Virus record (IMG/VR): IMGVR_UViG_3300031688_000025
Coordinates: 1-52,178 of that record
Direction: 5' to 3' (one strand)
DNA: 52,178 nt
From: a virus
Lineage: Duplodnaviria > Caudoviricetes
The notes under the pieces were generated by a model that saw only the letters and a list, made by a program, of their open reading frames with translations, did no database searches and was not told the DNA's origin. This document shows, one piece after another, positions 12,500 to 44,154 of this stretch. Numbering within the stretch: position 1 is the stretch's first letter; the number at the start of each line of letters is the position of its first letter. Position numbers and translations under genes: made by a program.

Positions 12500-12518
12500 G
12501 AGCCCTTCGGTCTCCTTG
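12500..12518 (+). promoter_or_regulatory. Putative virion-RNAP hairpin promoter 1
   Basis: GAGCCC-TTC-GGTCTC-CTTG (one stem mismatch); template strand has a C-GAA-G triloop. Confidence 0.55.
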
Positions 12519-12987: not shown

Positions 12988-13006
12988 GAGCCCTTCGGGC
13001 TCCTTG
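12988..13006 (+). promoter_or_regulatory. Putative virion-RNAP hairpin promoter 2
   Basis: Perfect GAGCCC-TTC-GGGCTC followed by CTTG; no U-tract. Confidence 0.65.
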
Positions 13007-20726: not shown

Positions 20727-20746
20727 AACGCCATAGATTAGAGCCT

Positions 20747-20858: not shown

Positions 20859-20878
20859 CACCCTAGAAGGAGGATACA

Positions 20879-21344: not shown

Positions 21345-21352
21345 ATTGCAAC

Positions 21353-21404: not shown

Positions 21405-21437
21405 TTTTTAGACAAACCTTTGTGAGGACACAAACGT

Positions 21438-22093: not shown

Positions 22094-22255
22094 ATGTCCG
22101 GCAAGGGTTCAAGGCCACGGCCTATGAAAGAAAAAGAAGCGTACTCTAAATCATGGGATGCTATCTTCGGTAAGAAAGACAAACCTGAGGAAGCAGTAGA
22201 GCCCTTCGGGCTCCTAAAAGGTGAGGATAAAGATGCAGAAGATAAAGATAATTAA
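22094..22255 (+). CDS. Small phage protein (53 aa)
   Basis: Not in the ORF track; AGGAG RBS; MSGKGSRPRP...WDAIFGKK. Confidence 0.55.
   Translation: MSGKGSRPRPMKEKEAYSKSWDAIFGKKDKPEEAVEPFGLLKGEDKDAEDKDN
22199..22213 (+). promoter_or_regulatory. Third copy of the GAGCCC-TTC-GGGCTC hairpin
   Basis: Identical 15-mer to 12988-13002; lies inside a small ORF ahead of endo VII/RNR. Confidence 0.45.
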
Positions 22256-29426: not shown

Positions 29427-31523
29427 ATGGCTAACGCTATACATGCTGTAGCTCAGTACATAAGGAGCAATAGAGAAGGTGCCCGAGGTAGGAATCACTC
29501 GGGTATCGAACTCTTAAACAGGCATATGGATTACGGTATAGAATACGAAGAGCTTGTTATATGTGCAGTACAGGCAGCTCAAAGCTTATTCCTTAGATCC
29601 CGTAACGCTAGTAGTAGAAGCTTCAAGTTAACAGCAACATCAACATCAATAGGTTTATCTGTGGTCTCTAGGATAGGGATCAGGAACAGTACCTATACAG
29701 AGTTATTCTCAGTTGGTGATCTGTTTGTCGAAGCCTTACTACAACTTAAGTACCTTGAGATAGAAAGAGAGTACGAAGGTTACCGAGCACCGTATGTAAT
29801 ATTCTTAACAGAAAAGTGGGAAGACTTAGGTGAGATACCTCCAGAGTTTGATAAGGCTACACTGAGTGGTACTAGCTTTAAGAAATTCCCTAAGATAATT
29901 GGGTTAAGAAACCCGATAACCAAGAGGCCGTATATCAAACGTATGACCTCGGAGAGGGACTTTAACCAGTGCCTTGACCAACCCTTTGTGAAAGCTCTAG
30001 ACAAGCTGCAATCGTCTGCTTGGCACCTTAACGTAGACCTTGTTAAAGCTCTCAGAGATAACGTCACTAAGTTCTTAGATATGAAAGATAAGACAGACAA
30101 AGGTAGGTCTAAAAGAATAGAGATGAAGTTTATCTTAAACAAAGCAAGGGCTATAGGAGACGAAACTTTCTACCAAGCGGTAGAGTGTGACTACAGGGGG
30201 CGAGTGTACTACACTGAACCGTTCTTAAACTACCAAGGTTCTGACTTAGCCAAAGGTCTCTTTCAGTTTGGCGTAAGTAAACCTATGGATGACAAAGGAT
30301 TCTTTTGGTTATGTGTACACACTGCATGTTCTTACAACCAGTCGTATACGATAGAGGACTTAGATAAACAATCATGGTTAACAGAAGACTACAGGCATCA
30401 CTTAGCAGAAGAAGGGTTGGATACTATTTCAGTAGACAAAATGACGTTAAGGGACAGAGCACATTGGACAGTACACCACCAGAAGGAACTGATAAACGAT
30501 GCAACCTTGATGAACTTCAGGATGGAAGCGGAGAAACCAGTATCACTCCTAGCTTGCTGTCTTGATCTTAAAGGTTATGTAGAATCTGAAGGGGTATACG
30601 AGTCTTGTCTGCCTATACCTGTAGACGGAAGTAACAATGGATGGCAACACCTAGCTGCTATGTCTAAAGACAGTCAAGCAGGGGCGTTAGTCTCCATAGT
30701 ACCTCAGCTAATACAAAAAGATTTCTATGTAGAAGTAGCTAAGCGATTGATAGTTAGAATGCCTGAGTGGTTTGAGGGTAGGTCTATGCCAATGAAAGCA
30801 ATACGTAAAGGGATAGCCAAGCGTGGGTCTATGACTAGAGCTTACTCTGCAGGTCAACGTAAGATAGCAGAGAATATGTTCTATGATTGTAAGACTGAGG
30901 GATACAATAAGAAGTACAAGATAAGCAAAGATGACTGCGACAAGCTGTCTAAGAATCTAATTCTTGCTATCAATGATACTTGTGTTGGGCCCTTAAAGAC
31001 CATGAAGTTCTTACAAAAGATAACTGACTACTCACTAGAGAGTGGACAGACTTGTCTATCGTGGACTACACCATCAGGATTCCCTGTGTTGTATGAAGTA
31101 TGGAAGCAAAAGAACCTGACACTAAGGGGTACTATCAGGGGCTTAGGGCAGATAGGTCATAGCATCAAGGTGCCTGTGCTTACCAGAGAAAGTAAGCCTA
31201 TACCATGCCGTAGGTCTTTTGCATCTGGATGTTCACCTAACTTTGTACACTCAATGGATGCAGCACACATGGCTAAGGTAATCGAGTCATTCCCCGGAAG
31301 CTTTGGGGCAGTACATGATTCCTTCTCTACCCATGCGTGTGACGTTGAGAGGTTACTTGAGCATACTAAGTGGCAGTTTGCTATGATGTATAATGTAAGT
31401 AACTTCTTTAATCGCATAGAGTCTATGATCCTTGAGGATCGTACAGGTTACTGTGTTAAACAACCAGATATAGGTGATCTAAAAATAGAAGAAGTCATAA
31501 GCTCTGACTATTTCTTTTCTTAA
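29427..31523 (+). CDS. Single-subunit T7-like RNA polymerase (short, 698 aa)
   Basis: DYRGRVY, PVDGSNNGWQH, AKRGSMTRAY, WTTPSG, PNFVHSMDAAH, VHDSF. Confidence 0.95.
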   Translation: MANAIHAVAQYIRSNREGARGRNHSGIELLNRHMDYGIEYEELVICAVQAAQSLFLRSRNASSRSFKLTATSTSIGLSVVSRIGIRNSTYTELFSVGDLFVEALLQLKYLEIEREYEGYRAPYVIFLTEKWEDLGEIPPEFDKATLSGTSFKKFPKIIGLRNPITKRPYIKRMTSERDFNQCLDQPFVKALDKLQSSAWHLNVDLVKALRDNVTKFLDMKDKTDKGRSKRIEMKFILNKARAIGDETFYQAVECDYRGRVYYTEPFLNYQGSDLAKGLFQFGVSKPMDDKGFFWLCVHTACSYNQSYTIEDLDKQSWLTEDYRHHLAEEGLDTISVDKMTLRDRAHWTVHHQKELINDATLMNFRMEAEKPVSLLACCLDLKGYVESEGVYESCLPIPVDGSNNGWQHLAAMSKDSQAGALVSIVPQLIQKDFYVEVAKRLIVRMPEWFEGRSMPMKAIRKGIAKRGSMTRAYSAGQRKIAENMFYDCKTEGYNKKYKISKDDCDKLSKNLILAINDTCVGPLKTMKFLQKITDYSLESGQTCLSWTTPSGFPVLYEVWKQKNLTLRGTIRGLGQIGHSIKVPVLTRESKPIPCRRSFASGCSPNFVHSMDAAHMAKVIESFPGSFGAVHDSFSTHACDVERLLEHTKWQFAMMYNVSNFFNRIESMILEDRTGYCVKQPDIGDLKIEEVISSDYFFS

Positions 31524-31540
31524 TTAAATAAGGATTAATA

Positions 31541-31744
31541 ATGATAATTAAAATGCCCGGTGTCACGGACACTAGTACGCCCTTACTAACAGAAGCTCAC
31601 TTCGAAACAGAAGAGAAACTTATAGAAGACCTAGGTGAGTTGTTAGAAAGTTACAACGGTAAGGTATCTAACCTAGCTATGGTTGGTGCCTTGACACTGT
31701 ATGCAAATATGGTATCATTAGGTTCTTTAGAGGCAAATGATTAA
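31541..31744 (+). CDS. Hypothetical protein
   Basis: AAGGA RBS; coupled to the next ORF. Confidence 0.6.
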   Translation: MIIKMPGVTDTSTPLLTEAHFETEEKLIEDLGELLESYNGKVSNLAMVGALTLYANMVSLGSLEAND

Positions 31745-32082
31745 TGGATAAAGTAAATGAGTTTCAAATTGTAGAAGACTTGGAGAACAAGGTAGTGGAC
31801 TGGGGTTACAGCAAAGGTATACTTACCAGTGCAGCACCAGATACTTTCCGTAGGATTAAACAACTTATTAAAACGGAAGAAGAGGTCATCGAGTTAGCTG
31901 ATGCTATACATGGTGACGATAGAACGGAGGCAATAGATGCCATTGGTGACATACTTGTTACTCTTATCATGCAGACACGTCTGTGGAATACTAATTTATA
32001 CGAGTGCCTCGATGAAGCTTTCGAGGTTATCAGTAAACGAACTGGACGAATGGTTGACGGCATATTCGTTAAGGATGAATAA
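31744..32082 (+). CDS. MazG-like nucleotide pyrophosphohydrolase
   Basis: K..EE..EL..AI.......DAIGD..V.L, I..R.G.MV.G.FVK. Confidence 0.85.
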   Translation: MDKVNEFQIVEDLENKVVDWGYSKGILTSAAPDTFRRIKQLIKTEEEVIELADAIHGDDRTEAIDAIGDILVTLIMQTRLWNTNLYECLDEAFEVISKRTGRMVDGIFVKDE

Positions 32083-32084
32083 CA

Positions 32085-32360
32085 ATGACTAACATGAAGA
32101 AAGAATCGTACAACATTATGCGGCACGAAGGGATAGATGATATGGAGTATGTAGAGGAGCTAGGTCTTAACCCTGCCCTTGCGTACACACCAGCTATCAA
32201 CGAAGCTATCATTGAGCATGTCTCTGCTGAGAACTACGCAGGCTATATAGCCAAGGGGGTTGACCATGATAAAGCAAATGAAATGGCTAATGCTCTAGCT
32301 AAGAAAGCAAGGGCTACAGTCAGCCATGCTAACCCTATCCTAAAGGATAAAGGTTATTAA
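32085..32360 (+). CDS. Hypothetical protein
   Basis: Last ORF of the + arm. Confidence 0.6.
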   Translation: MTNMKKESYNIMRHEGIDDMEYVEELGLNPALAYTPAINEAIIEHVSAENYAGYIAKGVDHDKANEMANALAKKARATVSHANPILKDKGY

Positions 32361-32425
32361 AAAAGGGCCCCAATTAAGGGGCCCAAAGTACTACTATATG
32401 GGGGCCCTAACGGGCTCCCTTTTTT
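32359..32425. terminator. Back-to-back terminators of the two converging arms
   Basis: AAAAAA-GGGCCCC-AATTAA-GGGGCCC (minus strand) and GGGGGCCC-TAAC-GGGCTCCC-TTTTTT (plus strand). Confidence 0.85.
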
Positions 32426-35400
32426 ATTGTAATGTTGTTTTAAACTTAGGATCATCCATAGCAAACTGATAGATACCTCTTGCCTTACCTTCTCCGCTAG
32501 CTGCGGAAACGTACTGGTAGTGTGCATCTTTCATATGCTTAGCTACTCCTCTTCTCCTTTCAGCAGAATCTCTATCAAGCCTTGCAAGATCCTTTACAAC
32601 TGAACCAAACTTCCACTTCATTAAGAAAGACATAGACTCTGATAAGGTAGCATAGTTTCTGTAAGGGTTAGGTGTCTCTATCTCAAGACCTTTGTACTGA
32701 TGTGGCTTTAACCTAGCAGCTAAACGTTCAGCTTCTTCCTTAAGTGGCCCGTCAACATCTAAGTAATTAAGTTGATTCCTAACAAACTCAACAGTATTGT
32801 TGTGTTCATCTTCCATTATCAACTCTTTACCTGCCTGTTCCCCTCGTCTTTTAAACTCCTTAAAGCCATGGTGGATGTTACCTGTAACTACATCCTTGAT
32901 ATCCTTAAGAACAGCAGAGTTATTAGTTTGATCAAACCAATCATCATTTAACATCTGTTCTACAATATCACCTTGACTTAAGTCTGTAACAACAGCGTCA
33001 TAAATAGGAGATAGCCAAGGCATATTATCACCTTGCGTAAGCTTAGTCCAGTTCTTACCAGATGCCAACATAATCATGTTCATTGCATCAAAAGACTGAG
33101 CAAGTGTAGCTAAGGAAGATCCCCTTGCTTTACCGCCTAAGATACCACCCTGTGCAGCATAAGGGGTTAGCTGTGGGTTAGCAGAAGTAGTTTGAATCCT
33201 TTGATCAACTGACTTAAGCTGTTTCCTTAGTGCATCAGCTCTGACTAAGTTACCTTCAGCTTCAGCTCTTGAAATACTATCTTGTATTCCTTTGTTTACC
33301 TTACGGTTACCTGCTATAGTTTTACTGTCAAGCCTCTTACCATTTTCAAATGGAGTTATCATACCCCTCTTGAAACTCTCAGTGTCGTATACTTTCTCCA
33401 TACCACCTAACGTAGTCTTACCGCCACTTGGGCTTGGGAAAGTAACCATTCTGTTAAACATAGTAGACGCATCAACAGAATCCTTAAGCAAAGCAGCAAA
33501 CTCTACAAGCTCAGGCCCTAAGGTAGCTTCAACTGCAACACCTCTTATATCGTTTAGTAACATAGCAGCGTTGTTAAGTCCACCGGGGAATGACTCAGCC
33601 GCTTGCTTAAGAGTAGGATCACTAAGTAAAGTATCCCAGACAGAACCTATTAAGTTATCCATCTCTTGACCATAAGCAAAGGTCATTAAAGGTTTCTTAA
33701 GGAAGTCTGCCTTGTTCTTTAAAGACAACTGAAAGAGTTCTCTTACATTATCTAACATAGTTTCGTCATAGCTGTACTTATCCATGAACGCTTTGTCAGT
33801 AAGCATGTAACCGCTGAACTCACTGTCAAGTAAAGTCTCTAAGTTATTACTGAGGGTCTTTCTTATATCACCTTCGTAAGCTTCAAAGCCTTCTATGTCA
33901 GAATAAGCTCCAAGTATCTTACTAGCATTCTCAGCACGGAACAAACCAACCCGATACAACTTCTCTTTAAGACCTAGTATGCTGAACATAGTAGCTAATC
34001 CATTAGAGATGCCATCGATTTCCATATAGTTAACAGCAGATCTAAAAGACTTACCTGCTTTCATAGCTGCATCATAGTTAGCTATATCAATAACAGCATC
34101 TATCATTTGTATAGCATGCTTGTGTGCTTTCTTGTTATTAGCCAAACCTTGTATGAAGTCTGCAACCTCAGGGTCAGAAGATAAAGCTGCTGGTACTCTA
34201 GTAGGTAGCTTGTCTACACCTGAAACACCATTACTGTTTACCATAATCTGAGACAAAGCTAATCGTGCTGGCTTGTCATCGTAAGCCTGAAGGGCCTCGT
34301 TGATCTTTTTGCCAATCCTAACTAGTCTCTTATGGGCCTCAGATTGTGTACGTATGTTACCCGCAGCTTGCTCTATAGCATCAGCCCTTACAAGACCACC
34401 TCCGTCATAGAACAAAGCAGACATAGTAGCCAACCAGTTACTCTCTTCTCTGCTACGGCTGTTAGGAATGACCTCGATCATCTTACCACTGCCAATAATA
34501 TTACGAACAAGATGGTTGTTAACTGGTGATAGCGAAGAGTGTGGTGTTAACCTTTGAGTAACTCTTTGTTTAAAGTATGTAAAGTAAAAAGGTTTATTGT
34601 CATACACAGATAAGCTCGTAAGAACCTCAAGGGCTTTGTTAGCATGCATGTAATACTGTTGCTGTTGGAACTCTGGAGTTCTAAACTTAGCTTCTTGCAA
34701 CTTAGATATCTCTATATCTTGCTGTAGTTTCTCTATTAAAAACACAGTACGATAATAAGCAGGACTAGAAGGTTCAACAAGCAGAGCTTTATCTAGCTTA
34801 GCCTGAAGTACAAGACCCCTAGCATTTTCATTTTCTGCTATCTTTGCAATAGAAGCTTTCCTTTCATCACCTATGTCAAACATATCAAGCAAAGGGTTAC
34901 CATTAGCACCCATAGCAGCCTGACCCATAGCAGCAGAGCCTAACAAGATTGCAATCTTAGATCGTCTAGGTTCAAAGTAATTAGGCACTTGACTGTAACT
35001 AAACATAGCATCATCGGCGCTAATAGACTTAGGGTTAGGTACAGATCCTGTGCTAGACTTAGTATAAGCAGATCCCTCATACATAGGTTGACCTGTAGCA
35101 GGGGGAGATAGAAGTGGCTTCATCCTTGGATTAAAAGGTTTATACTTCCTAACATCTCTTGAGAGTACCTGAAATCCTAGCTTAGTCAAAGACAAAGTAG
35201 GTGGTAAAATATTACCAGCTTCATCAATACCGCCCGGAGAATGAGTAACTATATCCGGGAAACTCATTTGATAATCAGCAAGAAAAATCTTACCAATCAT
35301 TTCAAAAGCCTCAGGTGTTAAGTTCTGGTAATCAGCTACGTAAGAATCTGTTTCCAAACCTTCCATCTCAGACTTAGCTCTACGAAAATCCTTAAAGATA

Positions 35401-36410
35401 GCCTCACCCACACCTCTAACCGATGTGTCAAACTTAGAGTCTCCGGCTTGATAACCTTGCAACTCATCTATGTCTGCTTGAGCAGCAGAACTTAGAGGTG
35501 AACCATCGTCATTGTTAGCTTGAGACATGCTTAGAAGCCAAGGCTCTATCACTGCCATTTGTATTAGGTCAAACCGTGGGTCTACTTTAGCTGTCCTTGC
35601 GTAAGATATTTCCTCAAAGTCTGCCTCTCCGTCTGCATAAGCCTGAGCTGTGTCACGTTCGAACTTAGCATCTAGCTTACCAACCCCAAGGATCTTAGGG
35701 TGCATCACTAAGTTAGACATGCTTAACTTTAAATCAGGATTGTCCTTGAAAACATTAGGGGCTACATCATCCTGAGTCTGCATCTGTTCGATAGCCTCAG
35801 CAGTAACTTCCTCATCAGGGTTAAGCTTAAGGGTATCCTTAATGCTTAGACCAATAACATCCCTGTCCTGAGAGTCCCTTGTTTTAAACCTAACTCTTTC
35901 TGTAAGCTCATGCCCTAAGACATTTGCTGCATTAGAGAAGCTAGTGGCGATACCCATTCTTTCTAATGGGCCGGGGACTCTTTCCTGTTCCCGTTGTTGA
36001 ACCTCAAGGGGTGTCTCAGCTTGATCAACAAAGACATTGCTGCCTTCCTCAACCACAGAGCCAACACCCTGAGAGCCTACGTCAGCTTGCGCAGGTAGTA
36101 CAGTGGCTTCTGCCAGACCTAAGTCTGAAACAGGAGTCTCTAGTTGAGACCCCTCAGCAACCATATCAGTTTCATCTATGATACCAAGTTGTATCAAGTC
36201 TTCTCGGGTATACTCACCTTCGCCTTGTACTCCTTGAGGCCCTTCCAATGGGCCGAACTGTTCCTCTATTCCTTGAAGAGCCTCGTTACCACCTTGAGCT
36301 TGTTGAGAAAGCTCTTCCTGTAACCTGAGAAGCGACTCTTGTTTACTTGCTTCTGTTTCAGCAGCCGTAGGTTGAGCACCTATCACTGCGTTAGCTGACG
36401 TAATCGCCAT
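32424..36410 (-). CDS. Putative virion-encapsidated single-subunit RNA polymerase (N4 vRNAP-like)
   Basis: Collinear motifs QRVTQRL..SPVNNHLVR, EIDGISNG (D799), KKPLMTFAYG (K905/Y913), FPSPSG, QSFDA, IYDA (D1138); no Cys; last gene of the ejection module. Confidence 0.8.
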   Translation of the reverse strand: MAITSANAVIGAQPTAAETEASKQESLLRLQEELSQQAQGGNEALQGIEEQFGPLEGPQGVQGEGEYTREDLIQLGIIDETDMVAEGSQLETPVSDLGLAEATVLPAQADVGSQGVGSVVEEGSNVFVDQAETPLEVQQREQERVPGPLERMGIATSFSNAANVLGHELTERVRFKTRDSQDRDVIGLSIKDTLKLNPDEEVTAEAIEQMQTQDDVAPNVFKDNPDLKLSMSNLVMHPKILGVGKLDAKFERDTAQAYADGEADFEEISYARTAKVDPRFDLIQMAVIEPWLLSMSQANNDDGSPLSSAAQADIDELQGYQAGDSKFDTSVRGVGEAIFKDFRRAKSEMEGLETDSYVADYQNLTPEAFEMIGKIFLADYQMSFPDIVTHSPGGIDEAGNILPPTLSLTKLGFQVLSRDVRKYKPFNPRMKPLLSPPATGQPMYEGSAYTKSSTGSVPNPKSISADDAMFSYSQVPNYFEPRRSKIAILLGSAAMGQAAMGANGNPLLDMFDIGDERKASIAKIAENENARGLVLQAKLDKALLVEPSSPAYYRTVFLIEKLQQDIEISKLQEAKFRTPEFQQQQYYMHANKALEVLTSLSVYDNKPFYFTYFKQRVTQRLTPHSSLSPVNNHLVRNIIGSGKMIEVIPNSRSREESNWLATMSALFYDGGGLVRADAIEQAAGNIRTQSEAHKRLVRIGKKINEALQAYDDKPARLALSQIMVNSNGVSGVDKLPTRVPAALSSDPEVADFIQGLANNKKAHKHAIQMIDAVIDIANYDAAMKAGKSFRSAVNYMEIDGISNGLATMFSILGLKEKLYRVGLFRAENASKILGAYSDIEGFEAYEGDIRKTLSNNLETLLDSEFSGYMLTDKAFMDKYSYDETMLDNVRELFQLSLKNKADFLKKPLMTFAYGQEMDNLIGSVWDTLLSDPTLKQAAESFPGGLNNAAMLLNDIRGVAVEATLGPELVEFAALLKDSVDASTMFNRMVTFPSPSGGKTTLGGMEKVYDTESFKRGMITPFENGKRLDSKTIAGNRKVNKGIQDSISRAEAEGNLVRADALRKQLKSVDQRIQTTSANPQLTPYAAQGGILGGKARGSSLATLAQSFDAMNMIMLASGKNWTKLTQGDNMPWLSPIYDAVVTDLSQGDIVEQMLNDDWFDQTNNSAVLKDIKDVVTGNIHHGFKEFKRRGEQAGKELIMEDEHNNTVEFVRNQLNYLDVDGPLKEEAERLAARLKPHQYKGLEIETPNPYRNYATLSESMSFLMKWKFGSVVKDLARLDRDSAERRRGVAKHMKDAHYQYVSAASGEGKARGIYQFAMDDPKFKTTLQ

Positions 36411-36413: not shown

Positions 36414-39400
36414 TTATTCTCCTGTTATCCAACCATTATCTACAGCGGTATCATACATCCGATGCTTTAAGAAAGAGAAGGGTGTTAACCCAGCACCAGA
36501 TTTAAGTGCCTTTCTTGCGTCATCTTCTAAGATACCCTGTCCAAAGCCGTGTACGTTTTTAACTATATTAGATGCAGGGGCTTCTCCTGACATAAGGTTC
36601 CACATAGAACCAAGTGCACTATCACTTCTGTTTTCATAGAGAGGGAACATTAGATCACTGCTAATGATTCTTTCAGTGGTGCCCAACAGACCTGTAGAAT
36701 ACAGGGCTCTTAGGTATTTCTCTTCATCACTTAAGTAAGGTGATCCTTCTCCAAACTTAATAAGGTCTTTCAAATGTTGTGAAGCATAGCCTAACATAAG
36801 CATAGTCATGATCGATGCAAAGGCAGAGTACTTCATTCCGGGGGTAGCGTTCTTAACTGTATCCCACAAAGCTGGTATATGGTTAGCAGTAAACTGGGAT
36901 ATGAAACCCTGAAACTGAGTAAACAAAGCTAGATGTGGATTACTGTAGAACAAAGGTCTTCCCATAGCTGTAGGCATAGGCACTGAGGCGTTGACATAGC
37001 TTATAAAACCATTGTCAAACTGTCTCTCATACTCAACCTGTAGCTCAGCTTGTTGTTGTTTAAAGAAGGCTAGCTCCCTTGGCCCTAAAGATTCTATGTC
37101 AACCTGTTTATTTTCTAACAGTCTACTAGAAAGATTAAGCATCTTATCCACAGGGATACCCATGTACTCTAACATCTTACGAGCTTCCGCTGCTTCGTTA
37201 GTAATTGTACCTTGGCTATTGTGAAGTATATCTAAGTTCTCAATTAAAAAGTCGTTGTACATAGACGCACGTATACTTCTTGTTAAGTTAGTTATACCTT
37301 GGAGACCAATGATCTTAAAGAAGGAGTCCATTATAGCCTGAGTCATCTGATTAGTTTCAGATACACCAACTAGAACAGCAGCACCAGTCTTCTGAGATAA
37401 GAATCCACCACGACTTAAGTTACCTCTAGGATCATCTAAGCCTACGAATCGTGGGTCAGAAGCTTGTCTATCGCTGCGAGACTTAATCTGAGTATCAAAG
37501 TTACTACGTGTAGGGGCTACTCCTGTAATCCTACCTACTTCTGCAAAGTACTCAAACATTTCTCTACCTAACAGTAGACCAAAAGACCCTACGTTCTTAT
37601 GTAGGTTCTGTAGTGAACTTCCTTTTACTGTAAGTGCCAACTCTACGGTAGAAGAGATAGCAGCTAACGGTAACATAGTTAGTACACCAGTCAGTGTTAA
37701 GAACTTCTGGGCACCACGAACAGCATCGCTTTGGATACGCTTGTAGTTACCAGAGTCAGCATTGATAAGATCACCCAGTGCAAGGGTAAGGTCTTCTACT
37801 GTTTCACGAGCGTTAAGCTCAGCAGGTGTGCCAACCTCAGCGTCCCCTCGGATCTCATTGTATACATCATTAAGCATAGATGTAACTAGCATATTGTTCT
37901 TACCAAGAAACTTAGTAGTAGTCATATACCTAGCAGAGGACTTCATAGAGTACTCAAGATTATTAAAGATATCTTGCTCTAAGAACTTGTCAAAGGCAGG
38001 GGTATCTGAAATGTCTAACGATCTTCTCTTATGGCCCTTAGGGTACAAACCACCACGAGTTAAATCGAATGCCTCATCTAAAGTATTTATCTCTGGATTA
38101 TCAATGATAGCATCAGTTATAGAAACAGCATCATCCCTGTCCATGCCCTTATGTCTTACAAGCAAGTTAACAAACTCATCCTTGTTCTTAGCTATGACTT
38201 CCTTTAGGAACCCTTTGCTTCTGAAGATGTGATCCTGAAGAGCACCAAGTATGTTAGGGTTGCCTGCTTGCTTTTGTCTACCAACTATATCAGTGTACAT
38301 AGTGTTATCCACAGTGTACAACTCACTGATTAACATCTTAAGAGAGTCAGCGTTTTCAGTGAAGTTAGGGTTAGATAAATTATCCCAATCAATAGCAGCA
38401 ATAACTTGATCGCCAGTCATCCACTCTTCGTTAGTACGTTTAGATCCGTCCTTGTTAACCCTAGTTATCGGGGCAATGTGTTCTAAGTAAAAAGAGTTAA
38501 CTAAAGCTGATACTGCTGTCTTCCGTGCACCATATCTGCTAGCCTTAACCTTAAAGGATGCAAGGACTTCTTGCATAGGCCTTAGCTTATTCTCAAAGTT
38601 AATGTAGTTAATTACTTTATCATTATGAAAGTCAACACCACCATGTGTCTTGTTCTTTCTACCACCAAACATATCGTATATAACACGAGCAGTCTTGCTT
38701 TGGTTAAGTAATTCAGTGCTCATTCTAGTATCTAGTGCTGTACGTAACAGAACCATAGGGCTAGTCAGTGCATCCTTTAGGGATTCACGGATAGTCTTAG
38801 CATCTTTACGTCCTTGAGCAGACTCTGTCCTACGTTGACCAGCATCAGGGTCATCTCTTAGTTTTTGAGCTCTAGCCTTTGCTCTAGCTTTATTAGGTGC
38901 ACTTGCACCCTCGTCTACATTACCATTAGCAGAGTCCCAAGCATTCTGCATGACCTCATCTAAGTCAGGAACTTCGTCTACGTTATTCTTACTCTTGTTC
39001 TCTGCTCTAGCTTCAGCTTTGTAACCTACAGTAGCGTCATCAAACCTACCATCGTAGTCAGACTTAGAGATACCAGCGTCATACCATTGACCTGCTTTAA
39101 AAACAGTAGTAGGTACAGAGAAAGCGCCACCTAAGGTACCACCAGCAACTAAAGCACTGGCTAATCGGCTCTCTAACTCTTCGTAATCCCAAGTTTTCTC
39201 AGAACCAATGACAGAAGCAGTGTACTGAGTAAGTTCCTGCAGCATCTCAGTGCTTCCTTCAAAGGCTGCACCAGCGGTAAGTCTCTTTGTAAGCTCTTTT
39301 AGTATGTGACCCTTAGCATATTGCTTAGATGCAAACTCTCCAGCATCTTTAGCATAACTAGCTAGCTCTCGTTTAGTTAAACGTGTCAATACTTCTTCAG

Positions 39401-41228
39401 CTTGATCCTTACTTAAGCCTACAGTAGCCGCATTACCTGCCTCTTTGCCTAAAGTAGCAGCAGCTCGTGCTAGTGGAGCACCAGTAGCGTTCATAAGGGC
39501 ATCAATAGCTACCTTCTTAGACTCACCAGTTAAGAAATGCTGGCTGTTAAAGCCCCCTAAAGCTCCTCTAAGGCCTAAACGATCCAGAGAGGCTGCGATA
39601 GCACCACCAACTACAGCTACGCCATAGCTCTTATCCTGTATGTTACCGGGCATCTCATCAAGTATAAGACCAGAGTACATAGCAACAGGAATAGTAAGGC
39701 TAGCCCCGAAAGTTAAAGGTGCAGTAACCATAGAAGCCATAGTGACTCCCATAAAGGGTATAGACATCACAAGGTTAGACCCTATGAACTCGCCTACTTC
39801 ACCAATAGAGCCCCAGTTTACATCCTTATAGTCTAAGCGTACCTTAGCCTGACCTTCCATCTCAGTTTTACTCTGCTCTACTTGACCAGTAAGCCACGCT
39901 CTAGTGTCTGTAGCTCCAACTACATCTGCCATTGCAGCACCAACCATCTTAAAAGAGTTACCTACCATAGTCAGGGATGAATCCCAAGTGTCAGACAGTG
40001 GTGTTTTAGATCGGTTGTCTAGTGTTGCGTTGGTGTTTCTAATTAAAACATCAGAGAATATCTCAGGAAATGCTGAGTACTCTTGCTCGTTAAGAGCCTG
40101 TAGTTTTGCAATAGGTACACCATTAGTAGGGGACAAGCCTGCTACTTTAATTAGTTCAGCAGCAAACTCGTAGTCTGTCTTAGGTACAGTGTCTTTCCTT
40201 AGGGCCCTTAGGCCATCACCGTACAACGACCTTGAGTAGCTATCGTCACTAAGGGTTTCCCGTGAGTTACCTATGAAGGTAGGCCTAGCGATACCACCAG
40301 AGATTAGGAAGTCTGTGAAAGACCTACCGTCCTCGTCTACTAGATCACCAATAGCTCGACCGTATCTATCTTTTTCCTTAGATGCTTTTACAGTAGTGTA
40401 TCCATACTTGTTAGCAAGAGCAGACACCATGTCTTTGCTTACTTGCCCAGCACCCTCACCGACTACGTAACCTTTCTCTTTAAGAACCTTAGAGGTTTCA
40501 GCTAAGTCAATGTCCCGTAGTCTTACACGATCTCCAGTTGCAGAGTCCTTAATGGTATCTCCATCAATGAAAGACCATCCTGAGTTTCCGATACTATAAT
40601 CGAATGTTTCGGTTGTAGCCTCAGGTACTACTTCCGTCTTTGATGGGTCAGTCAAGAAACTTTGACCGGCGTAAGAGCCAACAGCGTTAGCTACTCTCTT
40701 CATTCTTTTGTGTACACCTGTTCCTTCTTTTATAGACTTTTCGTAGTCATCATTACGCAGAAACTCTTGAGAAGCTTCCTCGTAATTACCTTCGTTCATA
40801 AAGCCTACAAACTTAGGGGAAGTACCAAGGTCACCTCTGTACTCAGCTTGAATGATCTCAGCCTTAAGGTCTTCTGGTAAATTATCTAGTGTTGGTATAC
40901 GATTACGTGCCCTCTCAACGTGATGTTGGAATGCAGCATCAAAACCTTTATCTATCCACTCACCTGTTTGACCTACGCCTTGAGTTGTCACACCCTTAGT
41001 ATCAAGGTAGGGGGCAGCTCGGTACCCTTCCTCTGCAACTACTCTTTGCTCAGCGTAAGTTAAAGGTCTTCCAAGGTTCTCGGAGACTTTAGTTATTGCA
41101 TCTGCTCCGTGGTAGACATCCTTGTCCACCGTGTTACTTTGTGGGAGAGTAGGGTCGGTATCAGGTTCATTTAAGAGACCCAGAGCACTCAACTCTTCTT
41201 CTGTATATTCAATTTTATTGTCGCTCAT
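36414..41228 (-). CDS. Large internal virion/ejection protein with N-terminal lysozyme and thermonuclease-like domains
   Basis: EEGYRAAPYLDTKGVTT (E-x8-D-x5-T); IDGDT..RVRLRDID..E..DRYGR; Gly/Ala hydrophobic segments; no Cys. Confidence 0.8.
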   Translation of the reverse strand: MSDNKIEYTEEELSALGLLNEPDTDPTLPQSNTVDKDVYHGADAITKVSENLGRPLTYAEQRVVAEEGYRAAPYLDTKGVTTQGVGQTGEWIDKGFDAAFQHHVERARNRIPTLDNLPEDLKAEIIQAEYRGDLGTSPKFVGFMNEGNYEEASQEFLRNDDYEKSIKEGTGVHKRMKRVANAVGSYAGQSFLTDPSKTEVVPEATTETFDYSIGNSGWSFIDGDTIKDSATGDRVRLRDIDLAETSKVLKEKGYVVGEGAGQVSKDMVSALANKYGYTTVKASKEKDRYGRAIGDLVDEDGRSFTDFLISGGIARPTFIGNSRETLSDDSYSRSLYGDGLRALRKDTVPKTDYEFAAELIKVAGLSPTNGVPIAKLQALNEQEYSAFPEIFSDVLIRNTNATLDNRSKTPLSDTWDSSLTMVGNSFKMVGAAMADVVGATDTRAWLTGQVEQSKTEMEGQAKVRLDYKDVNWGSIGEVGEFIGSNLVMSIPFMGVTMASMVTAPLTFGASLTIPVAMYSGLILDEMPGNIQDKSYGVAVVGGAIAASLDRLGLRGALGGFNSQHFLTGESKKVAIDALMNATGAPLARAAATLGKEAGNAATVGLSKDQAEEVLTRLTKRELASYAKDAGEFASKQYAKGHILKELTKRLTAGAAFEGSTEMLQELTQYTASVIGSEKTWDYEELESRLASALVAGGTLGGAFSVPTTVFKAGQWYDAGISKSDYDGRFDDATVGYKAEARAENKSKNNVDEVPDLDEVMQNAWDSANGNVDEGASAPNKARAKARAQKLRDDPDAGQRRTESAQGRKDAKTIRESLKDALTSPMVLLRTALDTRMSTELLNQSKTARVIYDMFGGRKNKTHGGVDFHNDKVINYINFENKLRPMQEVLASFKVKASRYGARKTAVSALVNSFYLEHIAPITRVNKDGSKRTNEEWMTGDQVIAAIDWDNLSNPNFTENADSLKMLISELYTVDNTMYTDIVGRQKQAGNPNILGALQDHIFRSKGFLKEVIAKNKDEFVNLLVRHKGMDRDDAVSITDAIIDNPEINTLDEAFDLTRGGLYPKGHKRRSLDISDTPAFDKFLEQDIFNNLEYSMKSSARYMTTTKFLGKNNMLVTSMLNDVYNEIRGDAEVGTPAELNARETVEDLTLALGDLINADSGNYKRIQSDAVRGAQKFLTLTGVLTMLPLAAISSTVELALTVKGSSLQNLHKNVGSFGLLLGREMFEYFAEVGRITGVAPTRSNFDTQIKSRSDRQASDPRFVGLDDPRGNLSRGGFLSQKTGAAVLVGVSETNQMTQAIMDSFFKIIGLQGITNLTRSIRASMYNDFLIENLDILHNSQGTITNEAAEARKMLEYMGIPVDKMLNLSSRLLENKQVDIESLGPRELAFFKQQQAELQVEYERQFDNGFISYVNASVPMPTAMGRPLFYSNPHLALFTQFQGFISQFTANHIPALWDTVKNATPGMKYSAFASIMTMLMLGYASQHLKDLIKFGEGSPYLSDEEKYLRALYSTGLLGTTERIISSDLMFPLYENRSDSALGSMWNLMSGEAPASNIVKNVHGFGQGILEDDARKALKSGAGLTPFSFLKHRMYDTAVDNGWITGE

Positions 41229-41242: not shown

Positions 41243-43579
41243 CTATTTTTTAGTAAGTAGTGCCTTTGCATTTTGTATGCTTTGGACTACACTATTAGCT
41301 ACGTCTGAAGGGGAACCAGCTAAGTATTGTGGTTCAGATTTACTCTTAGTAAACATACTGTTTACCCAAAGAAGAGCAGGTGATAATTGCTCTGCTTTGT
41401 TATCTGATGAAGCCTCAGATCTAGATTCCCAATGCTCCTTAATACCCTTAGGCCCTGTTAACATTGCGTTACTATAAGCCCTATGTAAATGTTTGTATAC
41501 ATTACCATTGGTAAAATCAGACTGAGGTAATTTACTATCTTTTAGTTTAGAGTTAAGTACAGAGTTAAAAGTCTTAGCATTAGTCCTAACCTTAGCCCAA
41601 GCGTTCTGACCAATCTCACCTTTAGGTTTACCTATGACTTCAAAGAACGAAGAAGGTATACCCTTATCAGTGATATCATACTTAAGCTTTTGGAAGTCAA
41701 AGAAAGATGCAATATCTTTATTGTTCTTAGCTCCACCTCTAGCTACAGTATCAATCCAATCTTCCATACCCTTAGTAATCATAGACTGAACAACTGATTC
41801 ATCTGTTGCGAAGTCAGTGTTAGCTGGAAAACCGTTTACAAAAGAAGAAACAGCTTGAACAAGACTACTACGTGCAGTGGAGCTATTTAACTGCTCTATT
41901 AAGAATCTTCTTTTCTCTACTTTCATATCAGGGTCAGCTTCCAAGACACCTGTTATCCTTTTAACAGCATTCTCAGAAGTTGTTTGAGCTTCTTTAACTA
42001 GTCTTTGGATAGCACCATCTTGAGTCTCACCATTAAAAGAAAAAGCATTACTGCCAATAAGAGCAGACATTGGAACACTGCCGCCAGCTTTAAGATCAGG
42101 AAATGAGCTTAGAAACGGCTTAATATTTGAAGGGAAGAAACGACTATTATCTTGAGACTTAACACCATCCACTTCTTGCCTTGTACTGTTGTCAAACAGG
42201 GTAACGCCATTATCAAAATTTGGAGAGAGATCAGCAGCTTGCTTAGCAGAAGCTGTAGCTTTTACTTTACCTGAAGCAATTGCTTGATCAGAGTCAGCTT
42301 TAGCTTTAGCAGCTTGTACTTTCCACTCGTTCTCAAGGACTGCAGCACCAAAGGATACACCGTCCCCACCTAGTACCTTAGAGGCTGTGTAAGCAAACAA
42401 AGCTTTACGCAAAGCAGGATCTTCAAAACCTTGCTTAGCAATATCCTTAACGCTGTCCCAAAGTTTACCAAAGAAAGTTGGATCTTCCTTTGCTTCATCT
42501 AATGAAGCCTTAGGTGTTTCGTTACCTGCACCACCTATATCAGAATCTTTAAGGTTTTTATCTACTTTGGTAGCTACAGCAGTTGGCACTGTAGGATCAG
42601 CTTTAGTAGGATCAGCTAAATTAGGATCAGCTAAATTAGGATCAGCTTTAGTAGGATCAGCTTTAGTAGGATCAGCTTCAGTAGGATCAACCGGTACTTC
42701 AAGTACTAGCCCTGCTGCAGTTGGATCAGCCGGTACTTCAGGGGTTTCTTTAATCCCCAGTTTTATCTCTAAAGCATCAGCTTGATCGTCTAAACCAGAA
42801 GCTCGTAAACGTGCTACCTTATCTTTTTTCTCTGCTTCTTTATCTAATTTGAGTTTAAGAACGCTTTGTTTTATACCCGCTATCTTCATGGTCTCTATTC
42901 TTATAAGAGACTCTGCTCTCTCTGGAGTGATATCTCCGTTATCTCTCAGAGCTGTTATGTTTACAATCTCCTGTTCAGCTACAGGTATTTTACTTTCGTC
43001 TGCAACAAAGCCTTCATAAACATTAGAAACAGGATCAATTATATTATCCCTAATAAAAGGAATCTCAGGTATGTTCTTAATAAACTGAGGGATAAGATCG
43101 CCAGCTACCCCTGAAACAGGAGAATTCATTAGTGGCTGATATAGCTCAGGCACAAAGTTTTCAGACTTAGGTACGGGTACATTAGAAAATTCAGTAGGAA
43201 CACCTGATGAGTTACCTTCTCCGCTAAGATCCCCAGAAACAGGGGGTATTGTATAAAGTGCGGGTAGCTCTTTAAGATCACCATAGCTGTTAAATGCTTT
43301 CGGAGCAACCCCTCCGCTAACAGGGGTTGCCTTAGTAGGATCAAAGTTCTCTTCAAAAACCTCTTGAGCCTTAGGTATTAAATTACCATCTGACCCGTAT
43401 TCCATGGGAGGTGGAGTTGGGCCTGTAAAGGTAACCTTTGGGCCAGTAAGCTCCTCAAGTGGGGCACTTGGTACAGCTATTTGTCTGTTGCTATAAATAG
43501 CTTTATCTTTATCCTCTTGATCCATGTCTTTCATCAAGGTCATTATAGCCCCAAACGCATTATTAAAATCATTAGCCAT
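41243..43579 (-). CDS. Internal virion/ejection protein
   Basis: Position in the ejection module, Pro-rich N-terminus, ADPTK repeats, no Cys seen. Confidence 0.65.
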   Translation of the reverse strand: MANDFNNAFGAIMTLMKDMDQEDKDKAIYSNRQIAVPSAPLEELTGPKVTFTGPTPPPMEYGSDGNLIPKAQEVFEENFDPTKATPVSGGVAPKAFNSYGDLKELPALYTIPPVSGDLSGEGNSSGVPTEFSNVPVPKSENFVPELYQPLMNSPVSGVAGDLIPQFIKNIPEIPFIRDNIIDPVSNVYEGFVADESKIPVAEQEIVNITALRDNGDITPERAESLIRIETMKIAGIKQSVLKLKLDKEAEKKDKVARLRASGLDDQADALEIKLGIKETPEVPADPTAAGLVLEVPVDPTEADPTKADPTKADPNLADPNLADPTKADPTVPTAVATKVDKNLKDSDIGGAGNETPKASLDEAKEDPTFFGKLWDSVKDIAKQGFEDPALRKALFAYTASKVLGGDGVSFGAAVLENEWKVQAAKAKADSDQAIASGKVKATASAKQAADLSPNFDNGVTLFDNSTRQEVDGVKSQDNSRFFPSNIKPFLSSFPDLKAGGSVPMSALIGSNAFSFNGETQDGAIQRLVKEAQTTSENAVKRITGVLEADPDMKVEKRRFLIEQLNSSTARSSLVQAVSSFVNGFPANTDFATDESVVQSMITKGMEDWIDTVARGGAKNNKDIASFFDFQKLKYDITDKGIPSSFFEVIGKPKGEIGQNAWAKVRTNAKTFNSVLNSKLKDSKLPQSDFTNGNVYKHLHRAYSNAMLTGPKGIKEHWESRSEASSDNKAEQLSPALLWVNSMFTKSKSEPQYLAGSPSDVANSVVQSIQNAKALLTKK
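42591..42689 (-). repeat. 15-bp tandem repeat (~7 units) encoding ADPTK/ADPNL
   Basis: taggatcagct(tta/aaa) units. Confidence 0.9.
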
Positions 43580-43596: not shown

Positions 43597-44154
43597 CTAT
43601 GACATTCTACGTAAGTGAGAACGTTTCTTTTGCATGTTCATAGCAGCTCTCTGATACATACTAGGTGCTTGTTGAGGTGCACCTGCAAGGCTAGCATTAT
43701 AATTTGTCTGTTGAGCTTGAACTTCTTTCGGTGTCAATGCTTGTACTCCTGCACCTAGGGCTTGCGGGGCCATAGACATTAAGAACTTTTTCCTAGCTTC
43801 TTCTTTTGCTAGAGTTGCAGCGGCAGTTGCTGCTGTATTTGTACCGGCTGCAGTAACCGCACCAGACCCTAAGGCTCCACCATAACCAGCAGTTACCCCG
43901 TTTAAGGCTCCAGTTGCACCTGCAGTGACCGCTGGAGTTGCTGCTGCACCCATTGTACCTACACTTGTAACTATAGGTGCTGCTGTTGCTGCTACAGGAG
44001 CTACTGCTGCTGTTGCAGGTGCCATTAGACCAGCCGCCGCAGGGCCTAAAAGTCCAATGCCTAAGCCCATAAGAGCACCTTTCTTTCTATCTTTCTTATT
44101 AGCTAAAGCGCCTAAGGCTGCTGCACCTAATGCTATTGCAATTGGTCCCGGCAT
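43597..44154 (-). CDS. Ala/Gly-rich small ejection protein
   Basis: Hydrophobic Gly/Ala helices; position in the module. Confidence 0.55.
   Translation of the reverse strand: MPGPIAIALGAAALGALANKKDRKKGALMGLGIGLLGPAAAGLMAPATAAVAPVAATAAPIVTSVGTMGAAATPAVTAGATGALNGVTAGYGGALGSGAVTAAGTNTAATAAATLAKEEARKKFLMSMAPQALGAGVQALTPKEVQAQQTNYNASLAGAPQQAPSMYQRAAMNMQKKRSHLRRMS

Follow-up and report, generated by a model that had tools for sequence, protein, structure and literature searches.

A known single-subunit RNA polymerase carried by a virion is gp50 of coliphage N4, a giant injected protein of 3500 aa whose polymerase domain (mini-vRNAP, residues 998-2103; PDB 2PO4, 3C3L, 3Q0A, 9PNQ) is flanked by an N-terminal (1-997) and a C-terminal (2104-3500) domain, for which unpublished work cited in the N4 review (PMC4496689) indicates a requirement in injection and encapsidation. 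The N4 early promoters are described in that review as three hairpins in the leftmost 10% of the genome, GC-rich, centred at -11, with a 3-nt loop and a sheared G:A pair. The T7-like RNA polymerases (Autographiviridae; Pfam PF00940) and the mitochondrial RNA polymerases are also among the known enzymes closest to the protein considered here. Here we consider the genome of a marine phage, represented by IMG/VR record IMGVR_UViG_3300031688_000025 (Duplodnaviria; Caudoviricetes), all 52,178 nucleotides of which were analysed (the window). While this phage already possesses a T7-type RNA polymerase (698 aa, 29427..31523, plus strand; PF00940, E 8.6e-50; phrog_414, E 1.8e-102), it carries a second, unannotated gene of 1328 aa (32424..36410, minus strand), the product of which is about a third the size of N4 gp50 and, as argued below, is predicted to be a single-subunit RNA polymerase that is probably injected. 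We found no description of such a protein in the literature searched.

An earlier note, made from the sequence alone, had proposed that this gene encodes a compact N4-like virion RNA polymerase, based on seven motifs shared, in the same order, with the 698-aa enzyme. These motifs are indeed present, FYFTYFKQRVTQRL at residue 608, SPVNNHLVRNII at 628, EIDGISNG at 797, KKPLMTFAYG at 905, FPSPSG at 991, LAQSFDAMNM at 1103 and PIYDAV at 1135, with their proposed partners in the 698-aa enzyme at residues 248, 268, 398, 465, 546, 606 and 628, respectively. The note did not state the strand: the open reading frame, with an ATG start, is on the minus strand, and the plus-strand reading is full of stops. 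A profile alignment of the protein family with 71 T7-like RNA polymerases of the same phage clade pairs five of the proposed motif pairs colinearly (motif A, motif B, FPSPSG/WTTPSG, QSFDA/HSMDA and motif C), even if this comparison alone is weak (prob 12.6%, E 0.0023, 306 columns), and comparison of the family profile with the single 698-aa sequence found nothing (prob 0.6%). However, comparison with more diverse polymerases is significant, with prob 97.6%, E 3.6e-12, score 115 and 624 columns against 8 diverse Autographiviridae RNA polymerases, and prob 99.2%, E 3.1e-19, score 183 and 702 columns against 9 diverse Schitoviridae vRNAP polymerase domains. The latter match covers mini-vRNAP from about residue 143 to 995, including its N-terminal domain, and thus the description of the protein in the note as near-minimal and stand-alone is apt.

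The predicted structure also supports this assignment. An AlphaFold model of residues 561-1328 (32427..34730, minus strand), corresponding to the polymerase domain (thumb, palm, fingers), has a pLDDT of 87.5 and a pTM of 0.85 and shows the right-hand fold of single-subunit RNA polymerases. A Foldseek search of PDB with this model returned 73 chains at E<=0.001, with only single-subunit RNA polymerases at the top, the best being yeast mtRNAP 8atw (2.1e-9), N4 mini-vRNAP 3c3l (7.5e-9) and T7 RNAP 1s77 (1.1e-8). A VIA comparison with 48,161 chains ranked six such enzymes first: yeast mtRNAP 6ymv (Z 15.1, 461 aligned), T7 RNAP 3e2e (Z 14.8, 473 aligned), N4 RNAPII 6dt7_B (Z 14.2), N4 mini-vRNAP 3q0a (Z 13.4, 533 aligned), N4 vRNAP 9pnq (Z 12.0, 540 aligned) and POLRMT (Z 11.5), followed by family-A DNA polymerases at Z<=10.9, with 265-303 residues aligned. 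These Z-scores do not separate N4 vRNAP from the T7 or mitochondrial enzymes. Upstream of the polymerase domain, residues about 131-560 (34731..36020, minus strand) make a predicted folded N-terminal domain (pLDDT mostly >85), homologous at the profile level to the N-terminal part of N4 mini-vRNAP, with the family HMM columns from 183 aligning with mini-vRNAP from residue 143. Structure comparison for this domain was not decisive, as VIA matched it to the N-terminal domain of yeast mtRNAP at Z 7.4 (181 aligned), not above noise, and Foldseek found nothing at E<=0.001, with N4 mini-vRNAP at rank 2 (E 0.57). Residues about 1-130 (36021..36410, minus strand) represent an acidic, probably disordered leader, with pLDDT <50 in residues 1-15, 56-64 and 84-123 and with one long predicted helix at residues 16-52.

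The residues expected at the active site are highly conserved. Of the 104 homologues aligned, all possess R620, R636, D799, G800, G804, K905 and D1138, and 103 possess Y913 and D1108. In profile alignments, R620, in the T/DxxGR-type motif region FYFTYFKQRVTQRL (34548..34589), aligns with T7 R425 and N4 mini-vRNAP R424; D799 and G804 of motif A, EIDGISNG (33999..34022), align with T7 D537 and G542 and with N4 D559 and G564; K905 and Y913 of motif B, KKPLMTFAYG (33669..33698), align with T7 K631 and Y639 and with N4 K670 and Y678; D1108, in LAQSFDAMNM (33075..33104), aligns with T7 D787; and D1138 of motif C, PIYDAV (32991..33008), aligns with T7 D812 and N4 D951, all on the minus strand. As pointed out in the note, the motif-B position matching T7 R627 and N4 R666 is occupied by Ala (residue 901, with Lys at 900), but this turns out to be a peculiarity of this member and some relatives, as 47 of 104 family members have Arg and 13 of 104 have Lys in this column.

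The family, mostly of 1100-1350 aa proteins, is nearly invisible to tools relying on sequence only. The 1328-aa protein hits no Pfam family at E<=1, 0 of 39 members hit PF00940 or the four Pfam families carried by N4-like vRNAPs, and neither phmmer nor a family HMM found a polymerase among PDB sequences. In PHROGs, the 1328-aa protein hits phrog_2206, 'virion RNA polymerase', at E 8.7e-7, but more members hit the T7-like family phrog_414 (15 of 39) than phrog_2206 (2 of 39). Nevertheless, 164 cluster representatives match at E<=0.001, and 113 IMG/VR contigs encode a relative.

The genomic context resembles that of N4 in layout, with early and replication genes on one strand and structural genes on the other, the latter ending in the polymerase gene next to large virion proteins. 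The gene in question is the last of the minus-strand structural operon, and it follows two giant putative ejection proteins, one of 778 aa (41243..43579, minus strand), with no family hit, and one of 1604 aa directly upstream (36414..41228, minus strand), with an SNase-like domain and a weak lysozyme-like N-terminus. A relative of the 1604-aa protein lies directly upstream in 52 of 52 related loci with >=3 kb of upstream sequence, and a convergent T7-like RNA polymerase is present in 70 of 70 related IMG/VR loci with >=3.5 kb of downstream sequence. In the window, this T7-like enzyme is encoded by the last large gene of the plus-strand early/replication arm, and the convergent intergenic region (32361..32423) contains two GC-rich hairpins, each followed by a T run on its own strand, thus resembling a bidirectional terminator; contigs of RNA library X11 break at 32363/32375, which is a weak hint only. 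The 1328-aa, 1604-aa and 778-aa proteins have no Cys, as is the case for N4 gp50, gp51 and gp52, and 95 of 104 family members have none, while the 698-aa RNA polymerase has 16 Cys, and the replication enzymes of the window have 1.5-2.4% Cys.

A lead to the promoters is provided by a 15-nt hairpin that occurs three times in the window, in two exact copies and one with one mismatch (6 strand-matches at <=3 mismatches against 0.5 expected), all intergenic and on the early-gene strand. It has a 6-bp GC-rich stem and a 3-nt loop, which reads GAA closed by C:G on the template strand. Copy 1 (12500..12514, plus strand) has a stem mismatch and folds weakly (-2.7 kcal/mol), while copy 2 (12988..13002, plus strand; -5.9 kcal/mol, z -2.3) and copy 3 (22199..22213, plus strand; -5.9 kcal/mol, z -2.7), the latter about 20 nt upstream of the ribosome-binding site of the ORF at 22221, are intact. 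The identical 15-mer recurs in two relatives whose polymerase is only 37-39% identical, with 4 copies in one and 3 in the other, 2 exact in each, and, by our placing of the genes, each copy lies on the strand of the early genes of that record. In a complete relative with terminal repeats (polymerase 24% identical), the CCC-TTC-GGG core is kept while the outer stem pairs differ, and one copy lies about 80 nt from the genome end, inside the repeat. These elements are candidate N4-type promoters, but they could be RNA-level elements instead, and Roseobacter phage CRP-7 has only one weak copy.

Overall, these data suggest a compact single-subunit DNA-dependent RNA polymerase, belonging to an undescribed family whose nearest relative is the polymerase domain of the N4 vRNAP. 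In the model that we consider likely, the protein is made late, as the last product of the structural operon, packaged in the capsid together with the two giant Cys-free proteins, and ejected with them through the envelope at infection; it would then transcribe the first genes of the plus-strand arm from the hairpins at the leading end of that arm, with the conventional T7-like enzyme, encoded at the end of the arm, taking over later transcription. While every part of the interpretation in the note that could be tested came out as predicted, catalytic activity, packaging, ejection, promoter use and the hand-over are inferred, with packaging and ejection resting, in the absence of virion proteomics, on gene position, the Cys-free trio shared with N4 and the hairpin elements. 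Against this model, counterparts of the N4 N-terminal and C-terminal vRNAP domains are lacking, and the two neighboring giant proteins show no profile similarity to these domains or to N4 gp51-54 (all prob <=1.3%). In addition, with a complete T7-like RNA polymerase at hand, the phage could rely on host RNA polymerase for its early genes, as phages of the phiKMV type appear to do, and so an injected polymerase is not logically required.

The alternatives appear less likely. The missing encapsidation domain, along with a fold and catalytic residues that would fit any active RNA polymerase, leaves room for an enzyme that is not packaged but works inside the infected cell, for example in late transcription or in priming of replication, and only happens to be encoded at the end of the structural operon. 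We consider this unlikely, as a polymerase first made with the last late gene has little left to transcribe in that cycle, its zero-Cys composition is shared with the two neighboring giant proteins and with the three ejected proteins of N4, unlike every cytoplasmic enzyme of the phage, it occupies the same relative position as N4 gp50, and its strict linkage to the 1604-aa protein suggests a shared virion role. Even less likely is a structural ejection or internal-core protein descending from an RNA polymerase but no longer polymerizing. The Ala in motif B, the failure of Pfam models and the divergent motifs of the CRP-7 branch, in which motif A reads D-A-R-Q-S-N-A and motif B carries Arg in place of Lys, could be interpreted in this way, but both catalytic Asp and the motif-B Lys are invariant in 104 of 104 sequences (and the motif-B Tyr in 103 of 104), with pairwise identity to the query falling to 17-20%, and the CRP-7 branch also maintains D678, R766, Y774, G775 and D979 in 20 of 20, and such conservation is not expected of a dead active site.

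A polymerase of another specificity (a DNA polymerase, a primase-like enzyme or an RNA-templated enzyme of the family-A/T7 superfamily) is similarly doubtful. Family-A DNA polymerases do match the model, at Z 7.6-10.9, but the six best structural matches are all RNA polymerases, with 324-540 residues aligned, and the phage already encodes a family-A DNA polymerase and a primase-helicase. Moreover, Gly is invariant at the motif-A +5 position, where family-A DNA polymerases probably carry the steric-gate Glu, and this Gly and the T/DxxGR arginine, present in 104 of 104, are likely RNA polymerase signatures; the Tyr aligned with T7 Y639 is also kept in 103 of 104. Finally, we found nothing in support of an assembly or gene-calling artefact or a chance open frame, which is most improbable given the number of homologues, the synteny conserved in all testable loci, the presence of this DNA in many independent sequencing runs and the high-confidence structure model.

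Among the systems described to date, a putative vRNAP has been proposed for Stenotrophomonas phage StenR_269, along with large Cys-free proteins of Zobellviridae (PMC10747016), in a podovirus with a similar two-arm layout and at the matching place; that proposal rests on size, lack of Cys and helical content only, with models of low confidence and no motifs reported. The matching large protein of the related phage Bjorn (gp17) shows no similarity to the family described here (prob 0.3%), in a comparison based on a single sequence and thus inconclusive. A divergent homologue is recognized in a cultured roseophage, CRP-7 gp33 (MK613349, 1235 aa, annotated as a hypothetical protein), whose major capsid protein is 53% identical to that of the window. 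This gene is syntenic, being the last of the minus-strand arm, after two giant proteins (gp33, gp34 and gp35 all lack Cys), and convergent with a T7-like RNA polymerase. While the relationship is undetectable by BLASTP, by HMMER, or by profile against the single sequence, a family-to-family profile comparison is significant (97.4%, E 1e-11, 757 columns). In CRP-7, motif A reads D-A-R-Q-S-N-A-G, and motif B has Lys and Arg swapped relative to T7 (K762...R766...Y774). A second polymerase is not mentioned in the parts of the CRP-7 paper that we consulted.

As to the T7-like and mitochondrial enzymes, the predicted fold is the same, and they are tied at the top of the structural list, but the profile score to the Autographiviridae enzymes is lower than to N4 vRNAP, and the protein is about 450 residues longer than T7 RNAP and is encoded in the structural operon, whereas the T7-like enzyme of the phage lies with the replication genes. 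N4 vRNAP presents the best profile match and the longest structural alignment, along with the same aligned catalytic residues, the position as the last gene of the late operon beside large ejected proteins, the lack of Cys, and GC-rich hairpins with a 3-nt loop at the leading end of the early arm, although the central base of the loop is A, not G. The rest of the genome, however, is not N4-like, as 0 of 26 window proteins hit any of 24 N4 proteins by phmmer at E<=0.01, and the partner polymerase is one full-length T7-like RNA polymerase, not the split gp15/gp16 of N4.

The window is one IMG/VR virus record, classed as linear and estimated to be 92% complete. However, an uninterrupted ORF (178 codons stop-to-stop, 167 aa from the Met) crosses the join of its last and first bases (51883-52178 joined to 1-204, minus strand), and the record is therefore probably a circularly permuted, complete genome. 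The genome is organized in two arms. The plus-strand arm (about 12.7-32.4 kb) carries small early ORFs, an amidoligase/COOH-NH2 ligase/glutamine amidotransferase/ATP-grasp ("S6 glutaminyl transferase") cluster (13983-19660), ribonucleotide reductase, a family-A DNA polymerase, an exonuclease and a primase-helicase, and it ends with a 698-aa T7-like RNAP (PF00940, E 8.6e-50; phrog_414, E 1.8e-102). The minus-strand arm carries terminase, portal, scaffold, capsid and tail fibers and, after wrapping round the record ends, holin and tail proteins, and it finishes with three large genes, of 778, 1604, and 1328 aa. The 1328-aa gene (32424-36410, ATG start; its product is termed P0001), which the earlier note had reported without stating the strand, is real but lies on the minus strand. 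It is therefore the last gene of the structural operon, convergent with the T7-like RNAP arm across a 63-bp spacer holding two terminator-like hairpins. Two tandem copies of an approximately 21-nt unit containing TATAAT (about 12330-12385, plus strand) lie in the 650-bp non-coding stretch between terminase and the first early ORF, a stretch that, by analogy with the record ends of Roseobacter phage CRP-7, probably holds the genome termini.

The seven motifs that the earlier note had assigned to a single-subunit RNA polymerase (ssRNAP), along with their partners in the 698-aa RNAP, are where the note had placed them. Residues 799, 905, 913, and 1138 are D, K, Y, and D, and residue 901 is Ala, preceded by Lys, as the note had cautioned. 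Sequence libraries say almost nothing of this protein. No Pfam family is matched at E<=1, a phmmer search against PDB sequences gave 0 hits at E<=10, and a family HMM against PDB sequences gave only a low-complexity hit at E 1.1. Translated searches with P0001 and with another family member, P0046, gave no match among 50,697 phage records, a word-index search found only 5 proteins, including the window's own, and no relative of the single sequence was found in 185,579 species genomes, from which no host clue came. The only flag is phrog_2206, "virion RNA polymerase" (E 8.7e-7, over residues 753-914). A protein atlas gave viral hypothetical clusters and PF00940 clusters at 0.95-0.96, with recognition below the usual threshold, and this may be considered as a lead only.

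An exhaustive HMMER search of 1.84 billion cluster representatives with residues 561-1328, on the other hand, found 164 relatives at E<=0.001, of which 95 are at <=1e-10 and 19 at <=1e-30. Of the 153 sequences considered, 122 are 1000-1400 aa long, with a median of 1164 aa. In an alignment of 104 of them, at identities to the query that fall to 17-20%, R620, R636, G700, D799, G800, G804, G813, G822, K905, and D1138 are invariant in 104 of 104, and Y913, G914, D1108, and R850 are present in 103 of 104. The two catalytic Asp of motifs A and C and the motif-B Lys and Tyr-Gly are thus in place, as are R620, of what is probably an RNAP-specific T/DxxGR motif (this member reads V-T-Q-R where the family consensus has G-R), and a Gly where DNA polymerases are likely to have a steric-gate Glu. 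The motif-B Arg, in contrast, is Ala in this protein, and the column is Arg in 47 of 104 members, Lys in 13 of 104, and Ala in 10 of 104. An AlphaFold2 model of residues 561-1328, built on 61 sequences (mean pLDDT 87.5, pTM 0.85), shows the right-hand thumb-palm-fingers fold. A Foldseek comparison with PDB returns 73 chains at E<=0.001, the best being yeast mitochondrial RNAP (2.1e-9), N4 mini-vRNAP (7.5e-9), and T7 RNAP (1.1e-8). VIA-align, independent of Foldseek, ranks six ssRNAPs first among 48,161 representative chains, at Z 15.1 to 11.5, with 324-540 residues aligned and spanning model residues 1-760, N4 mini-vRNAP having the longest alignments (533 and 540), while family-A DNA polymerases follow at Z 10.9 and below, with 265-303 residues aligned.

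To place the family among the polymerases, we built profiles and compared them with hhalign. The family matches 9 diverse Schitoviridae vRNAP polymerase domains (22-56% identical to N4) at a probability of 99.2% (E 3.1e-19, score 183, 702 columns), and N4 alone at 75.6% (E 2.4e-5). It matches 8 diverse Autographiviridae RNAPs at 97.6% (E 3.6e-12, score 115, 624 columns), while the N4-like profile matches those T7-like sequences at 95.3% (E 2.1e-8, score 84, 305 columns). The match to 71 T7-like RNAPs of this phage clade is weak (12.6%, E 0.0023, 306 columns), but it is colinear and pairs five of the motif pairs proposed in the earlier note (motifs A, B, and C, FPSPSG/WTTPSG, and QSFDA/HSMDA). 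The residue map is exact: R620, D799, G804, K905, Y913, D1138, and A901 of this protein align, respectively, with R425, D537, G542, K631, Y639, D812, and R627 of T7 RNAP, and with R424, D559, G564, K670, Y678, D951, and R666 of N4 mini-vRNAP. The N4 numbers come from our alignment to residues 998-2103 of gp50; D559, D951, K670, and Y678 do not occur in the N4 review, nor does the word "cysteine," and the catalytic role of these N4 residues is likely.

The match to the vRNAP domains reaches from about residue 143 to residue 995 of N4 mini-vRNAP, and so includes the domain N-terminal to the palm. A second model (residues 1-600, pLDDT 82.3) shows low confidence over most of about 1-130, with a well-folded domain from about 130 onward. 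Fold searches with this model are not decisive: Foldseek found nothing at E<=0.001, with N4 mini-vRNAP at rank 2 (E 0.57), and the VIA matches, at Z 6.6-8.1, are mostly coiled-coil noise, above which a match to the yeast mtRNAP N-terminal domain (Z 7.4, 181 aligned) does not stand. As the profile alignment to N4 mini-vRNAP does cover this region, almost the whole protein is polymerase, leaving no room for counterparts of the 997-residue N-terminal and the 1397-residue C-terminal domains of N4 gp50. We also considered a fission, in which the 1604-aa or the 778-aa neighbor would correspond to one of these domains, or to gp51-54, but no profile similarity was found (best probability 1.3%), with the reservation that the N4 profile was shallow (10 close sequences).

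Similar gene arrangements are found in related viruses. A relative is encoded by 113 IMG/VR contigs, and the family HMM found the gene in 80 of the 80 loci retrieved. In 70 of 70 loci with at least 3.5 kb downstream, a T7-like RNAP gene is convergent with the polymerase gene, and in 52 of 52 loci with at least 3 kb upstream, a relative of the 1604-aa protein lies directly upstream. The closest isolate by capsid (53% identity) is CRP-7, an unclassified member of the Caudoviricetes, whose genome has the same layout, gp30 being a T7-like RNAP, and gp35, gp34, and gp33 being giant proteins on the other strand. CRP-7 gp33 (17859-21566 of that record, minus strand) is undetectable by BLASTP or by profile against the single sequence, the family HMM found nothing in the CRP-7 or N4 loci at E<=10, and PHROG scans of gp33-35 gave nothing meaningful. 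However, the gp33 family, of 20 sequences, matches the window's family at 97.4% (E 1e-11, 757 columns), and it keeps an invariant motif-A Asp, motif-B R...YG, and motif-C H-D-A. Interestingly, the two motif-B basic residues are swapped in this branch relative to T7 (K762-x3-R766-x7-Y774 against R627-x3-K631-x7-Y639), both being invariant in 20 of 20 sequences. As direct comparisons of the CRP-7 family gave only 5.7% with N4-like vRNAPs and 0.1-0.5% with T7-like RNAPs, the link to CRP-7 runs only through the window's family. The parts of the CRP-7 paper consulted describe only one RNAP (PMC6918029). Pseudomonas phage Bjorn shares the amidoligase cluster (28837-35238 of its record) and the two-arm layout but has no T7-like RNAP and no detectable vRNAP-like domain, and its large terminal protein, gp17, compared as a single sequence, shows no similarity.

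The evidence that the polymerase is a virion protein is circumstantial, in the absence of proteomic data, and catalytic activity, packaging and ejection remain inferred. One line of evidence is position, as N4 gp50 is likewise the last gene of the late arm, next to gp51 and gp52. Another is cysteine content. The three terminal proteins of the window have 0 Cys in 1328, 1604, and 778 residues, and so do N4 gp50, gp51, and gp52 and CRP-7 gp33, gp34, and gp35, and 95 of 104 family members have none, while the 698-aa RNAP has 16, and the cytoplasmic enzymes of the phage have 1.5-2.4%. Cysteine is, however, also absent from the 923-aa tail fiber, the scaffold protein, and the 185-aa protein upstream of the three large genes (1279-4050, 6287-7390, and 43597-44154, respectively, minus strand), and zero Cys therefore marks several virion-associated proteins of this phage, not only the putative ejected ones. 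The 1604-aa protein (36414-41228, minus strand) has a staphylococcal-nuclease-like domain (PF00565, E 4e-5, 24.4 bits, cut-off 21; residues 234-324), unusual in a putative ejection protein, and a sub-threshold phage-lysozyme match (residues 66-95, 16.4 bits, cut-off 22.3). In-frame periodic repeats are also present, with a 21-nt periodicity through about 1 kb of the tail-fiber gene (2941-3912, minus strand) and six 15-nt tandem units in the gene for the 778-aa protein (42577-42696, minus strand).

A third line of evidence is presented by candidate promoters. A 15-nt element, GAGCCC-TTC-GGGCTC, occurs three times, as two exact copies and one with one mismatch (6 strand-matches at <=3 mismatches against 0.5 expected), and it has a 6-bp stem and a 3-nt loop, which reads GAA closed by C:G on the template strand. 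All copies are intergenic and on the early-gene strand, two at the very start of that arm (12.5 and 13.0 kb) and one about 20 nt before the ribosome-binding site of the ORF at 22221. The template strands of the two perfect copies fold at -5.9 kcal/mol (z -2.3 and -2.7), and the mismatched copy folds at -2.7. The identical 15-mer recurs in two relatives whose polymerase is only 37-39% identical (4 copies in one and 3 in the other, 2 exact in each), and, by the gene positions, each copy lies on the strand of that record's early genes and in matching places. A complete relative with terminal repeats (polymerase 24% identical) keeps the CCC-TTC-GGG core but differs in the outer stem pairs, and one copy lies about 80 nt from the genome end, within the repeat. 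The early promoters of N4 are described as three hairpins in the leftmost 10% of the genome, with a GC-rich heptamer centered at -11, a 3-nt loop, and a sheared G:A pair (PMC4496689). The geometry matches, though an RNA-level role of these elements is not excluded. A sigma-70 scan of 11900-14100 found 2 promoter-like sites, both on the minus strand, against 4.0 expected, and is not informative. A second conserved motif, CCGACA-(1-8 nt)-TACATGCA, occurs 4 times against 0.00 expected (13612-13629, 13697-13713, 21354-21373, and 21385-21404), with all copies on the plus strand, in two pairs, at least one of each pair lying just after a terminator-like hairpin with a T run. These may be promoters of the T7-like RNAP or middle promoters.

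As to the arguments against an injected polymerase, the domains serving injection and encapsidation in N4 are absent from the protein and were not detected in its neighbors, the motif-B Arg is Ala in this member and is Arg or Lys in only 60 of 104 members, and, as a T7-like RNAP is already present, host RNAP plus that enzyme could suffice. Contigs from four RNA libraries cover the gene, and in one of these they stop and restart exactly at the convergent spacer (32363/32375), with a depth of 26.4 on the plus-arm side and of 54.7 on a 9.7-kb contig that spans the polymerase gene, the 1604-aa gene, and part of the 778-aa gene. This is a weak hint of transcription units, as DNA may be present in such libraries, and contigs cannot show transcription.

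A bolder hypothesis, which we consider about as likely as not, is that a whole, widespread lineage of about 50-60-kb marine podoviruses of the CRP-7 type runs a two-polymerase relay independent of host RNAP, in which a minimal N4-type RNAP of roughly 1200 aa is packaged and injected, fires from GNA-triloop hairpin promoters at the leading genome end (in one relative inside the terminal repeat), and then hands over to a T7-like RNAP. The family would then be the sequence bridge between T7-like RNAPs and the giant vRNAP of N4, given the respective profile scores (183 to N4 and 115 to T7, while N4 to T7 scores only 84), and the extra 2400 residues of the N4 enzyme would not be intrinsically needed to get a polymerase through the tail. 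The giant vRNAP has served as the hallmark of N4-like phages, whereas a third-size homolog turns up here in unrelated-looking podoviruses that are common in seawater, the CRP-7-type group being reported as ubiquitous in marine viromes (PMC6918029), and CRP-7 and its host are in culture. Injected ssRNAPs would thus extend beyond Schitoviridae, and there would be a natural minimal model for how a polymerase is packaged and translocated and an intermediate for tracing how T7-like and N4 polymerases diverged. A compact RNAP specific for hairpin promoters on single-stranded DNA could also be a useful in vitro transcription tool.

No description of a short vRNAP-like polymerase in CRP-7-type or other podoviruses outside Schitoviridae was found in five full-text searches of the literature, subscription journals and supplementary files (those of the CRP-7 and hidden-N4 papers might bear on this) not being covered. 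The nearest items are a speculation, from size and lack of Cys alone, for phage StenR_269, a 2083-aa vRNAP within a schitovirus, and a metagenomic survey that explicitly discarded vRNAP-like hits shorter than 2500 aa (PMC10654107). Compared with Schitoviridae gp50, otherwise of about 2800-3800 aa (PMC10654107; PMC11705849), the protein is, at 1328 aa, far smaller, and nothing else in the window resembles N4 at the phmmer level (0 of 26 proteins hit any of 24 N4 proteins at E<=0.01). Against a simple N4 family label, 15 of 39 members individually hit the T7-like phrog_414 and only 2 of 39 hit phrog_2206, 0 of 39 hit, at E<=0.01, PF00940 or any of the four Pfam families (PF21769, PF21894, PF21624, and PF21867) that N4-like vRNAPs carry, and the structural Z-scores are tied. 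The fair description is a third, deep ssRNAP lineage that lies between the two known ones, and nearer to N4 vRNAP.
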